Below, in pieces: positions 38,762 through 45,326 of a DNA stretch of 64,000 nucleotides. Numbering within the stretch: the stretch's first letter is position 1; the number at the start of each line of letters is the position of its first letter. Source of the stretch: Acutalibacteraceae bacterium (lineage in GTDB: Bacteria; Bacillota; Clostridia; Oscillospirales; Acutalibacteraceae); assembly GCA_045589015.1 (NCBI GenBank), contig JAZNFG010000053.1, positions 5,118 to 69,117 on the forward strand, written 5' to 3'. The position numbers and the translations under genes were made by a program. The notes beneath the pieces are model-generated. The model had not been told where the DNA came from, ran no database searches, and was given only the letters and a program-made list of their open reading frames with translations.

Positions 38762-38823
38762 AAAGCTACCTCCGTTTTATATCGTTAATCACAGTATAAC
38801 ACAGCAAATTATCAAATTCAATG

Positions 38824-39408
38824 TCATATCTTTATTTTCATAAGTCCGTGCCTGTTGCAGAAAATATAAATATATCCTCTCCCGCGCAGCTTCAGTCTTG
38901 TTTCGGCATTTCCCTCCGGATACAGCTTCTGAAATTGAACCCTGTCCGTTGTGACGTGAGCTATAAAAGAAATATAGTGAGACTTTGTCATATCGTGATT
39001 TACCGATACAAAAAATTCGTCCTCAACCCTTTCAACGGTAATTCTGTGACGGTCATCCGTTTCGTCCGCCTCAAGAACCGGCAGAGTTATACCGCAGCAG
39101 CTGACGAATGCTTCGCCCGTTGCAATTATAACGTTTCCGCAGACGGGACAAGCATAAAATTTTGAACGGAGCATATTTGAAGAAGCATTCTTATTTATAA
39201 CCGCATTTCCCGACATCAGCTCCATAACGGACACGCCGAGAGCAGTTGCAAGAGGCTCAATAAGAGAAATATCGGGCAATCCCCTTGCCGTTTCCCATTT
39301 TGAAACGGCTTTACTTCCGACACCGATTAAATCTGCCAGCTGCTGTTGAGTGATTCCCTTTCCTTCTCTCAGCTTTTTTATGGCAGCACCCGTAATATAG
39401 TTATTCAT
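38824..39408 (-). CDS. XRE-family HTH domain fused to a complete desulfoferrodoxin (2Fe superoxide-reductase-like) module
   Basis: The N-terminus IKKLREGKGITQQQLADLIGVGSKAVSKWETARGLPD is an XRE HTH. CPVCGNVIIATGEAFVSCCG matches the desulforedoxin-type centre I (CxxC...CC). RH...HDMTKSHYISFI...FCNRHGL matches centre II ligand positions (H, HxxxxxH, CNxHG). AAGGAGA RBS. Confidence 0.7.
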   Translation of the reverse strand: MNNYITGAAIKKLREGKGITQQQLADLIGVGSKAVSKWETARGLPDISLIEPLATALGVSVMELMSGNAVINKNASSNMLRSKFYACPVCGNVIIATGEAFVSCCGITLPVLEADETDDRHRITVERVEDEFFVSVNHDMTKSHYISFIAHVTTDRVQFQKLYPEGNAETRLKLRGRGYIYIFCNRHGLMKIKI

Positions 39409-39506
39409 ATATTCATCTCCTTTTTTTCTTTATTCTATTCCGTAAAGAATATTAAAGCAACCTACGCTTCGTTGAATTAAAAGGGAGATGAAAAATTTGT
39501 AAAAAA

Positions 39507-42960: not shown

Positions 42961-43518
42961 TCAGATTAATTTCTTTCCGTCACAAAATGCCCTTCCTACA
43001 ACTTCACCGAAGCTCAGATAATCGTATGTTGCACCGTCAAAAATAACAGGATTAAGCTTTTTAGCATCGATTTTTCCGTTTCCGTCAAGTACACCTTCAT
43101 CTGCGCTGACATTTATTATCTCACCGATACAAATACCGTCCTCGTTAAATTTTATTAGCTTACATTCAACCGCAACGGGAAGCTCCGAAATAATGGGCGC
43201 GTTAACAAATTCACTTTTGACGGCGGAAAATCCGGCCCTCGTAAGCTTTTCCGGCTCATCGTTTGCCGAAACGATACCTACGTAGTCACAGGAAACAAGC
43301 CTTTCTACGGTTGCAAAGCTGACGGTAAAAGCACCGTTGTCCCTTATATTTTCCGTGGTTTTATGGTCTTTTGCAAGGCAGACCATAATTTTATTATCAT
43401 CATAAATACCGCCCCACGCCGCATTCATAGCATTTGGTTTACCGTTTTTATCATAAGTACCGATAATCAGCACCGGCACAGGATAAAGCCAGCTTTTAGC
43501 TCCGAAATTCTTTCTCAT
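42961..43518 (-). CDS. Flavin reductase-like FMN-binding split-barrel protein
   Basis: YPVPVLIIGTYDKNGKPNAMNAAWGG...FTVSF is the typical Flavin_Reduct N-terminal pattern. The start is placed at the second ATG, 9 nt after GAAAGG. Confidence 0.65.
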   Translation of the reverse strand: MRKNFGAKSWLYPVPVLIIGTYDKNGKPNAMNAAWGGIYDDNKIMVCLAKDHKTTENIRDNGAFTVSFATVERLVSCDYVGIVSANDEPEKLTRAGFSAVKSEFVNAPIISELPVAVECKLIKFNEDGICIGEIINVSADEGVLDGNGKIDAKKLNPVIFDGATYDYLSFGEVVGRAFCDGKKLI

Positions 43519-43584
43519 AACAGTCATCCTTTCTGTTTTAACGCATTATTACAAATTTTTGTGTTTTATCCTTTTATAAAATTT

Positions 43585-44400
43585 TCAAAAACAATTCTCT
43601 TGTTTTTCAACGGCAAGTCTGATATTCCAGCCGTTTTTATCTAAACGTAATCGGGCATCCTCCTGTGAACAGGCAAGGATTTCCGATACTATCCCTATCA
43701 TTCTGTTTTTCAGCTTTTTATTGGTGGGCTTCAGATTAATCATCAGATTTTCGTAAACACAGCCGCATTTCACCATTGATGCCGTTGAAATCATATTAAG
43801 AATAATCTTCTGTGCGGTTCCTGCTTTCATACGAGTAGATCCGCTTATGACCTCGGGACCCGTATCTGCACATATATCGATATCTGCTTCTTTTCCGAGC
43901 TGTGTTTCGGGATTGTTTGTAACGGAAAAGGCTTTCGCGCCCAGAAGCTTTGCATATTTCACGGCAGAAATTACAAATGCCGCAGAGCCTGAGGCTGAAA
44001 TTCCGATAAGAATATCCTTATCTGAGAAGCACCGTTTTTTAAGCTCGTCAATTCCTGCATTTTCATCATCCTCGGCATTTTCTGCCGCCTTGAACATACA
44101 AGCTTCTCCGCCTGCAATTATCCCGTTAAACAAGCCGTGCGGAACACCGAAGGTGGGAGGACATTCGGCGGCATCGCATACGGCAAGTCTGCCCGAGGTG
44201 CCGCTTCCGATATAAAATACCCTACCGCCTGCCTTTATTGCCTCTGCCGACGCATCACATACTGCGGCAATCTCCGGCAAGACCTTTTCTACGGCATCGG
44301 CTACTTTTCTGTTTTCATTATTTATAATTCTGAGCATTTCCTCCGTGCTCATTTTATCGATACCGTAGGTATCGGGATTTCGCTTTTCCGTGTTTAACAT
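43585..44400 (-). CDS. murQ: N-acetylmuramic acid 6-phosphate etherase
   Basis: MLNTEKRNPDTYGIDKMSTEEMLRIINNEN, the SIS-domain block YIGSGTSGRLAVCDAAECPPTFG, and GSTRMKAGTAQK. GGGAGGG RBS inside the upstream gene, with a 7-nt overlap. Confidence 0.85.
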   Translation of the reverse strand: MLNTEKRNPDTYGIDKMSTEEMLRIINNENRKVADAVEKVLPEIAAVCDASAEAIKAGGRVFYIGSGTSGRLAVCDAAECPPTFGVPHGLFNGIIAGGEACMFKAAENAEDDENAGIDELKKRCFSDKDILIGISASGSAAFVISAVKYAKLLGAKAFSVTNNPETQLGKEADIDICADTGPEVISGSTRMKAGTAQKIILNMISTASMVKCGCVYENLMINLKPTNKKLKNRMIGIVSEILACSQEDARLRLDKNGWNIRLAVEKQENCF

Positions 44401-45326
44401 AATTTCCCTCCCGAAAGCTTTTCTGCAAGACTGACGGCAGCATTTACCATCCTTTCTTCACAAAACCTAAGCCTTACGTCCTCTGCAAGGTATTTCTTTA
44501 TAAAATCAGATAAAATCTCCTTCTGACAGCTGAGTCCTCCGCAGATTACGACATTTTTTTCGGTATTTGCAGATATATTCAAGGCTCCGTTTATTACAGA
44601 TGCCGCTTCTTTTGCATTTTTCTCAATTATCTCTGCGGCTTTTACGTCTCCCATACGATACGCTTCAAAAACAACCGGTGCAAAAGAGGCTACCGCAGCC
44701 GCACCGCCTTTATATATTTCTGAAATTCCTTTTTCAAGAGGACAGCCAAGTCTTTCTTCGATTAGCTCCGATAGTATTTTACTGCCGTTTCTTCCGTCAA
44801 TTGCTTCAAATGCAGAATTCAATGCATCAGAACCGAAATGAAAGCCGCTTCCGCCTTTATCTATCATATAGCCTCTGCCGCCCGTACGGTAAAGCTTATC
44901 ATCCCTTCGGGAAAATGCGGCAATACCCGTTCCCATAATCACAGCCGTACCGTTTCCGCCCTTCAGGCAAAGCTCTATTGCGACATCAATATCACTTGAG
45001 CATAAAAATGCATAAAAACCGAATCGGGACAAAAAATTATTGATAAGTCTTTCATTATCTCCCGATTTTACCCCTGCAATTCCCGCAAAAACGGAAACCG
45101 TACCGATATCTATTCCGTTACAGCATTTTTCTATTCCCTGAGAAAGCACCGAATACGTATTATCCAAGCTTCCGTTAACAGGATTCGACGTTCCGAGACA
45201 AAATCCCTTTATCTCTTTTTTGCTGAGGTCTGTCAACAAAAACTCTGTCTTCGTGCCTCCCCCGTCGATGCCTAAATAATACTCAGCCTTTTTATTATAA
45301 TCCCTGTTTTTTCCAACAGCCGTCAC
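44394..45326 (-). CDS. BadF/BadG/BcrA/BcrD-type ATPase; GlcNAc/MurNAc kinase-like
   Basis: YLGIDGGGTKTEF phosphate-1 motif and GGRGYMIDKGGSG. GTG start with GGAGAG RBS. It is coupled to murQ, an arrangement known for MurK-type kinases in clostridia. Confidence 0.6.
   Translation of the reverse strand: MTAVGKNRDYNKKAEYYLGIDGGGTKTEFLLTDLSKKEIKGFCLGTSNPVNGSLDNTYSVLSQGIEKCCNGIDIGTVSVFAGIAGVKSGDNERLINNFLSRFGFYAFLCSSDIDVAIELCLKGGNGTAVIMGTGIAAFSRRDDKLYRTGGRGYMIDKGGSGFHFGSDALNSAFEAIDGRNGSKILSELIEERLGCPLEKGISEIYKGGAAAVASFAPVVFEAYRMGDVKAAEIIEKNAKEAASVINGALNISANTEKNVVICGGLSCQKEILSDFIKKYLAEDVRLRFCEERMVNAAVSLAEKLSGGKLC

Follow-up and report, generated by a model that had tools for sequence, protein, structure and literature searches.

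The stretch of DNA analysed here, 64,000 nucleotides (nt) from an Acutalibacteraceae bacterium (contig JAZNFG010000053.1) and hereafter called the window, encodes on its reverse strand a 194-residue protein in which a DNA-binding domain of the XRE family is fused to a C-terminal module related to the two-iron superoxide reductases (2Fe-SORs), also known as desulfoferrodoxins. The gene, its expression signals and the domains of its product are located in Table 1. As stated in a preliminary description of the locus made from the sequence alone, the protein is the product of a single open reading frame (ORF), which begins with ATG behind a GGAG ribosome-binding site and contains no frameshift; when the upstream regions of homologous loci are compared, the consensus at the position of the ribosome-binding site is AAGGAG. 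The assignment of the N-terminus to the XRE helix-turn-helix (HTH) proteins in the same description is also borne out: Pfam HTH_3 matches residues 10-64 with E = 4.3e-13 (49.5 bits against a cut-off of 23), a profile of the protein family matches the P22 c2 repressor with E = 9e-9, and in a Foldseek search the modelled N-terminus aligns with the DNA-binding domain of P22 c2 at a template modelling (TM) score of about 0.9. An antisense ORF of 114 residues (window 38821-39165, forward strand), which covers the 3' two-thirds of the gene, appears in the mechanically produced ORF list only and has no support as a gene.

Table 1. Positions of the gene, its upstream signals and the domains of its product in the window
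Feature	Position	Strand	Basis
HTH-Dx-SOR gene, 194 codons and stop	38824..39408	(-)	ORF list and sequence
ATG start	39408-39406	(-)	sequence
Ribosome-binding site GGAG	39417..39420	(-)	9-12 nt 5' of ATG, 8-nt spacer
XRE/HTH_3 DNA-binding domain, residues ~7-66, five helices	39211..39390	(-)	Pfam, AlphaFold2, Foldseek, profile
Linker, residues 67-82, with conserved Asn72 and internal Met79	39163..39210	(-)	model, alignment
Desulforedoxin-like centre I domain, residues 83-110, C87-x2-C90 ... C104-C105	39079..39162	(-)	alignment
SOR-like centre II beta-sandwich, residues 111-194	38827..39078	(-)	alignment, Foldseek
Inferred sigma-A-type promoter	39432..39460	(-)	-35 TTGCTT 39455-39460, 17-nt spacer, -10 TAGAAT 39432-39437
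18-nt pseudo-palindromic element TCAACGAAGCGTAGGTTG, putative operator	39458..39475	(-)	cross-species conservation

The order of the domains in this one polypeptide, HTH_3 (10-64), desulforedoxin-like (Dx, 83-110) and SOR (111-194), fits the definition of the class 'HTH-Dx-SOR' in SORGOdb (PMC3116461, Lucchetti-Miganeh et al. 2011), which comprised 19 proteins with an N-terminal HTH and a Dx-SOR part. The architecture is therefore not new: it has been a named class since 2011, and homologues carry the name 'DNA-binding XRE family transcriptional regulator/desulfoferrodoxin' in JGI annotations and 'helix-turn-helix domain-containing protein' in NCBI entries from metagenome-assembled genomes (MAGs) of Clostridia. 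The passages of the SORGOdb paper that deal with the class set it by domain order alone and offer no function, operator or residue analysis. What the present analysis adds to those passages is the extent of the family (about 1,100 clusters at 50% identity), a putative operator with its predicted promoter, the general absence of the Lys of the EKH motif, which makes the Arg of the window atypical, and invariant centre I cysteines set against a centre II that can be lost in distant members. In agreement with the preliminary description, which knew of no experimentally characterised member, literature searches found none, nor did they find any paper beyond SORGOdb that pairs an XRE or HTH domain with a SOR domain. 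Two candidate relatives were rejected: TrtA of T. denticola is a 104-residue XRE protein without a SOR domain, and Sor of C. difficile is a stand-alone 2Fe-SOR whose regulator, OseR, belongs to the Spx family.

The C-terminal part had been taken for a complete desulfoferrodoxin on the basis of a CxxC...CC site and the ligand pattern of centre II, and every ligand listed at that time lines up with those of solved structures. The best sequence matches among proteins of known structure are the desulfoferrodoxins of D. baarsii and D. desulfuricans (phmmer, E = 1.7e-7 to 1e-5), collinear with residues 81-191, and the family profile matches the desulfoferrodoxin (Dfx) of D. baarsii with E = 4.9e-16. 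Residues C87, C90, C104 and C105 of centre I align with C10, C13, C29 and C30 of D. baarsii SOR, and H121, H138, H144, C184 and H187 with the centre II ligands of structures 2ji1 and 1dfx, so that all nine metal ligands are present. An AlphaFold2 model, for which 36 diverse family members served as input, has a mean predicted local distance difference test (pLDDT) score of 91.3 and consists of five helices (residues 7-16, 21-28, 32-39, 47-57 and 61-66) followed by a beta-rich module, with a lower pLDDT, 76-84, in the linker. Foldseek comparison of residues ~75-194 of this model with structures 2ji1, 2ji2, 1dfx and 1y07 gave target-normalised TM scores of 0.73-0.79 and root-mean-square deviations of 2.1-3.0 Å over 121 columns; the 2Fe-SOR fold is shared with the SORs of D. 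baarsii, D. desulfuricans and T. pallidum.

Although the ligands and the two-domain fold are thus retained, the word 'complete' overstates the likeness. The NCBIfam desulfoferrodoxin equivalog dfx_rbo matches residues 82-191 from end to end, yet with 47.2 bits against a cut-off of 146.9; TIGR00332 scores 18.1 against 61.9 bits, Pfam Desulfoferrodox (residues 134-191) barely passes its gathering score (22.9 against 22.2 bits), and Pfam Desulfoferrod_N (residues 84-106) remains below threshold (14.3 against 23). With the 2Fe-SORs (2ji1, 1dfx; TIGR00320) the window protein has in common, in collinear order, the two-domain fold, the CxxC-x13-15-CC centre I and the His4Cys centre II, whereas its module is only about 25% identical to them in sequence, places D119-R120-H121-R-I opposite the EKHxP motif, with no Pro at position +2, and belongs to a family with YPE and GL motifs and an N-terminal DNA-binding domain. 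That family also has three short deletions relative to D. baarsii Dfx, two of which adjoin centre II ligands in the profile alignment. By these scores, far under the NCBIfam cut-off, the module is a diverged subfamily of desulfoferrodoxin relatives and not a typical member.

The fusion is widespread among Clostridia. The best 120 matches in a search of 5.8 billion proteins include throughout full-length homologues of 194-205 residues at 74-82% identity, and a scan of a genome collection in which each species is represented once yielded 599 candidate stretches, of which 564 encode a relative. The 80 highest-ranking stretches, to which the locus counts given here refer, come from Acutalibacteraceae, Oscillospiraceae, Ruminococcus and other Clostridia MAGs of ruminant and human guts, and the protein of about 194 residues is encoded at full length in all 80. 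A taxonomic survey, proposed in the preliminary description, thus places the fusion in hundreds of Clostridia species, and the single ORF in 80 of 80 loci, along with purifying selection on all of its parts (see below), rules out that it is an artefact in which a frameshift or sequencing error has merged two genes. When 1.84 billion cluster representatives were scanned exhaustively with HMMER, the C-terminal 120 residues matched 1,109 clusters at E<=1e-3, 494 of them at E<=1e-10; these clusters, formed at 50% identity, include fragments and unfused forms. Canonical desulfoferrodoxins would score about E = 1e-3 at that database size (scaled E-values), which indicates that most of the clusters belong to the diverged subfamily. 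Cultured carriers are Monoglobus pectinilyticus and Acetoanaerobium noterae. The homologue from M. pectinilyticus (WP_320690409.1; NZ_OY725727.1, locus L208, 3986-5387), at 36% identity, keeps the canonical EKH and has the last His ligand replaced by Asp (SRDG).

The module also occurs by itself. Among the best 150 cluster representatives, 52 have an HTH, 22 consist of the module only and the remainder are fragments. One unfused module, P0169, a protein of 116 residues encoded at 1501-1851 of locus L201 (contig CAZYYT010000002.1), lacks an HTH and has its own ribosome-binding site and an AT-rich upstream region; its start is the equivalent of Met79, which is conserved inside the fused proteins. 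Stand-alone modules of 116-120 residues that begin at this Met, with a YPEQ motif and without Lys before the first His, are also found in P0174, P0176, P0185, P0213 and P0242. A short-chain dehydrogenase gene lies downstream of the module gene in L201. No second SOR-like gene was found in the window.

Conservation was assessed on 285 module-covering sequences mapped onto the window protein and divided into close homologues (at least 60% identity, n = 203) and distant members (below 60%, n = 82). Among the close homologues C87, C90 and C104 are conserved in 100% of the sequences; C105 is Cys, and centre I thereby complete, in 198, and all five ligands of centre II are present in 200. Residues P45-D46, M140, Y163-P164-E165 and G188-L189 are invariant and specific to the family, the last three of these groups having no match when the sequences from D. 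baarsii and D. desulfuricans are aligned, and N72 of the linker is nearly invariant. When the window gene was compared in turn with each of 76 gapless orthologues, the ratio of nonsynonymous to synonymous differences (pN/pS) was 0.23 for the HTH, 0.28 for the linker, 0.20 for Dx and 0.25 for SOR, 0.24 overall, with synonymous sites near saturation; values of 0.20-0.28 in each part indicate that every part is kept by selection. In the distant members C87, C90 and C104 remain nearly invariant and C105 is replaced by His in 12, H187 is replaced by Asp in 23 and C184 by Ser or Asp in 10, and centre II is complete in 45 and incomplete in 37. On this alignment, centre I and the beta-sandwich are the universal parts of the family. 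Over the whole alignment the change of C105 to His occurs in 17 of 285 sequences (CCG to CHG), and the replacements of H187 are mostly Asp (24 of 36). Since His at position 105 and Asp at position 187 can still bind metal, altered sites are suggested more than lost ones.

Three centre I cysteines that are essentially invariant throughout the family, combined with a centre II that is incomplete in 37 of the 82 distant members, are compatible with an ordinary autoregulated XRE repressor in which the Dx-SOR part is a structural scaffold, that is, a dimerisation domain stabilised by a metal (Fe or Zn) in the Cys4 site and devoid of sensing. Canonical 2Fe-SORs are known from their structures to be homodimeric, and XRE regulators need a dimerisation domain. 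We regard such a purely structural role as distinctly improbable, because the five centre II ligands persist in 200 of 203 close sequences despite 20-40% divergence of the SOR domain at the protein level and a pN/pS of 0.25 in that domain, a strictness that is hard to explain in the clade of the window if the site were functionless, and because H187 is replaced in distant members mainly by the metal-capable Asp (23 of 34 replacements) and not by random residues.

The preliminary description had also remarked on DRH in place of EKH before the first His of centre II. This is true of the window protein but is not the state of the family. At the position of R120, which corresponds to the catalytic Lys (Lys48), the close homologues have Ala (91), Glu (49), Ser (15), Asp (15), Asn (7), Arg (3) or Lys (3), so that A, E, S or D account for 170 of the 203 (~84%) and K or R for only 6; the Arg of the window is accordingly a rare variant in a family that, as a whole, is without the Lys. 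The position of D119, equivalent to Glu47, is Asp or Glu in 168 close homologues (83%). The Lys that precedes the first His in EKHxP reportedly assists SOR catalysis, as Lombard and colleagues are said to have found in 2001. Its lack of conservation, taken together with the short deletions near the active site, suggests that the module is not optimised for turnover, and to judge from the sequences the absent Lys and shortened active-site loops would fit a sensor better than an enzyme.

The same residues can be weighed in favour of a trigger enzyme, an active superoxide reductase that in addition binds the promoter of its own gene, so that its redox or occupancy state would adjust the amount of enzyme; detoxification would be its main role and regulation a secondary one. 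The nine ligands and the 2Fe-SOR fold are kept, the Arg of the window protein preserves a positive charge at the Lys position, and the diverged module, since it also exists as an unfused gene for 116 residues, has an independent function. The PDB names 'T24K' and 'E23A' for the SOR of Ignicoccus hospitalis moreover imply that a natural SOR has Thr at the Lys position. We nevertheless consider a trigger enzyme unlikely. Lys or Arg occupies the catalytic position in so few of the close homologues, the score of 47 against 146.9 bits is far under the desulfoferrodoxin equivalog cut-off, and distant members lose centre II ligands while they keep the HTH and, nearly invariant, three of the four centre I cysteines. 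Furthermore, no linked gene for rubredoxin or another electron donor was found in the window or the 80 loci, and transcription factors are normally present in far too few copies for bulk detoxification.

A strong and unexpected indication of a regulatory function comes from the region upstream of the gene. Of 79 upstream regions, each comprising the 160 nt 5' of the start codon and each from a different species, 78 contain a pseudo-palindromic element of 18 nt with the consensus TCnACGnAnCGTAGGTTG, in which 13 positions are near-invariant against about 0.2 bit in the flanks. The last three bases of the element are the TTG of a -35 hexamer whose other three positions are unconserved, and a spacer of fixed length, 17 nt, separates it from a -10 box, so that the cross-species promoter consensus reads TTGnnn, 17 nt, TATAAT. 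It is on this cross-species conservation that the promoter in Table 1 is called; a single-sequence scan missed it because its -35 hexamer matches at only 3 of 6 positions. In the consensus, a symmetrical core ACGnAnCGT is combined with outer half-sites TCnAC and GTAGG whose centres lie 10 bp apart, a spacing that a dimeric HTH protein of the P22/434 type would need.

The element follows the gene and not the locus. It is present once in the window and is retained in 78 of 79 upstream regions while the neighbouring genes vary, the largest neighbour family being found in 7 of 80 loci. An exact-match scan of metagenome contigs found 122 sites, at 91 of which a homologue follows closely in the same orientation; the other 31 are mostly on high-GC soil or marine contigs without a -10 box, as would be expected if most of them were chance matches. 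Fused members at 36-47% identity, the cultured M. pectinilyticus among them, have related elements with an ACG-N3-CGT core before a -10 box (TCTACGAAACGTCGGTTG, TGTACGGATAGTGGATTG, TCTACGGAGCGTGGATAG, CAACGCTCCGTTTGTTG and, in M. pectinilyticus, CAAACGGAGCGTTTGTTG), and the co-occurrence of element and fused gene extends across 36-82% protein identity. The element is absent upstream of the single unfused module gene examined. As no Rfam family matches in the window, it is no known riboswitch or leader. An element that moves with the gene, has the symmetry of a dimer, overlaps the promoter and is missing from the single gene without an HTH that was examined shows the pattern classically taken to mark autoregulation by the HTH protein that the gene encodes, and the suggestion of a DNA-binding regulator in the preliminary description is strongly supported by a conserved palindrome at the gene's own promoter that accompanies the gene across species.

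In geometry the arrangement is that of the P22 c2, 434 and lambda cI repressors, with which the protein shares the five-helix HTH_3 domain (TM 0.9 to the DNA-binding domain of P22 c2) and the putative site a pseudo-palindromic form of about 15 bp, half-site centres 10 bp apart and a location beside the -35 box. The differences lie in the C-terminal domain, here a metal-binding SOR module in place of a LexA/S24-type or helical oligomerisation domain, and in the gene itself, which is not phage-borne but a single chromosomal gene in varied contexts. In lambda, OR2 adjoins the -35 box at PRM. With its centre at about -43, beside a weak -35 hexamer, the putative site resembles that of lambda cI at PRM and hence, by analogy, positive autoregulation; its overlap with the TTG of the -35 hexamer would equally fit repression. 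That the HTH might not bind DNA at all is suggested by HppE, HEPD and MPnS, precedents for HTH_3-like domains in Fe(II) enzymes, which Foldseek retrieves over the full length of the model, if only at TM 0.28-0.32; the protein would then be an enzyme with an accessory domain, and some other factor would bind the upstream element. We give this possibility hardly any credence in view of the standard HTH_3 score (E = 4e-13), the TM of 0.9 to P22 c2, and a palindrome that accompanies the fused gene and is missing upstream of the single stand-alone module gene examined.

Some copies of the element occur in other settings. Among the sites that are not followed by a homologue, a few have a good -10 box (L101 and L126, L197, L088). 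The metagenome contigs L101 and L126 have the exact operator sequence (L126 1129-1146, reverse strand), a 17-nt spacer and the -10 box TATACT, and a ruvA-like ORF about 160 nt downstream; no HTH-Dx-SOR gene follows, and the site could belong to a further gene of the regulon or be the relic of a promoter whose gene was lost. In both contigs the left half-site pairs with the spacer to form a hairpin, which is followed by a run of T. In the metagenome loci L163, L168 and L200 the operator sequence lies inside a terminator-like hairpin, ACACTCCACGCAGCGTAGGTTGCGCGGAGTGTTTTAT, with no recognisable -10 box and no homologue downstream.

Taken together, these observations incline us, by no wide margin, to regard the protein as an autoregulated transcription factor of the XRE family in which a diverged two-iron SOR module has become the effector and dimerisation domain. 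The architecture, the fold, the conservation of the ligands, the selection on every part and the co-occurrence of a promoter element with the gene are direct observations. Canonical 2Fe-SORs are dimers in crystal structures; if the Dx-SOR module dimerises in the same way, the dimer would place two P22-c2-like HTH domains on the half-sites TCnAC and GTAGG of the element that abuts the -35 box of its own promoter. The SOR-derived module would thus supply dimerisation and, probably, the signal input. Centre II of SORs reacts with superoxide at near diffusion-limited rates, and upon oxidation the acidic residue before the first His binds Fe3+ and shifts a loop. In an iron-bearing regulator, the solvent-exposed His4Cys site might analogously change its oxidation or ligation state on meeting superoxide, O2 or another oxidant, with the Cys4 site of centre I, near the linker, as a possible alternative input; this change, presumably the signal, would be relayed through the short linker to alter DNA binding and with it the transcription of the gene itself and of further targets. 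Protein-bound iron centres that report oxidants to a DNA-binding domain are familiar from PerR, SoxR, FNR and IscR/NsrR, a likeness at the level of the concept only. PerR (a His/Asp Fe site in a Fur fold) and SoxR, FNR and IscR (Fe-S clusters) have no homology to the window protein, in which the putative sensor would be, unlike theirs, a mononuclear His4Cys SOR site and/or a rubredoxin-like Cys4 site. More tentatively, we suggest that HTH-Dx-SOR proteins in general may constitute a widespread class of oxidant sensors of strictly anaerobic Clostridia, with the diffusion-limited superoxide chemistry of the SOR His4Cys site, deprived of the Lys that promotes turnover, as input to a transcription factor of the phage-repressor type and an 18-bp operator as readout.

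Several observations weigh against this interpretation. With centre II complete in 45 of the 82 distant members and its ligands lost in the others, sensing based on centre II cannot be family-wide, and the natural SOR with Thr implies that a missing Lys does not by itself exclude efficient SOR catalysis. No oxidative-stress genes linked to the regulator were found, either in the window or in some 90 further loci. When up to 3 mismatches to the operator were allowed, 16 sites were counted in 689 kb of ±5 kb flanks, where about 13 were expected by chance, and no second operator was found in the window; as secondary sites are not above chance level in either, no regulon emerges from these sequences. 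Finally, it is conceivable that some other factor binds the conserved element.

A conserved set of ligands in a solvent-exposed metal site would also suit a sensor of Fe2+ availability, in which the occupancy of the His4Cys site and not its oxidation state controls DNA binding, as in Fur or DtxR. The sole hint in this direction comes from M. pectinilyticus (L208), where a gene for a ZIP family metal transporter lies 101 nt downstream of the homologue on the same strand. This linkage is a single case, and metal-uptake genes are not among the recurrent neighbours in the 80 loci or the window; besides, in known enzymes the SOR site binds iron tightly, a poor fit to a reversible occupancy sensor. 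An iron-availability sensor is therefore very unlikely in our estimation.

The sensing of oxygen-derived stress is poorly understood in gut Clostridia that are strict anaerobes, among them Acutalibacteraceae, Oscillospiraceae and Monoglobus; the regulators known are PerR, Rex, sigma-B and, in C. difficile, OseR of the Spx type. If the interpretation as an oxidant-responsive regulator is correct, a transcription factor built on a SOR iron site would be a mechanistically distinct sensor of superoxide or O2, unrelated to SoxR, PerR, OxyR or FNR and present in hundreds of gut and rumen species. Were the protein only a scaffolded repressor, it would still be a clear case of an enzyme fold recruited as a domain of a regulator. 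The conserved promoter site allows a direct test of the probable role of the protein, that of a regulator which responds through iron to redox or oxygen stress, in a system that comprises a putative operator, a predicted promoter, residues to mutate and cultured carriers.

The genomic neighbourhood varies from species to species. In the window the neighbours encode an M20 peptidase, an MFS_2 transporter and a WbsX-like protein. The idea of an operon partner was dropped, since no conserved partner was found in the 80 loci, where no neighbour family exceeds 7, and the contexts differ in distant members as well. Four of five distant loci have an acetyltransferase gene directly beside the regulator (of the GNAT type in L203, L205 and L206, for a sugar O-acetyltransferase in L208); no such gene recurred as a neighbour in the 80 close loci. 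Further upstream in the window, on the reverse strand and with no link to the regulator found, lie genes for a flavin-reductase-like protein (Flavin_Reduct/PNPOx, 42961-43527), a GKRP/SIS-domain protein (43585-44400) and a BadF/BadG/BcrA/BcrD-type ATPase (44394-45326), the last two of which resemble, by domain content, a sugar-phosphate isomerase or etherase with a kinase.

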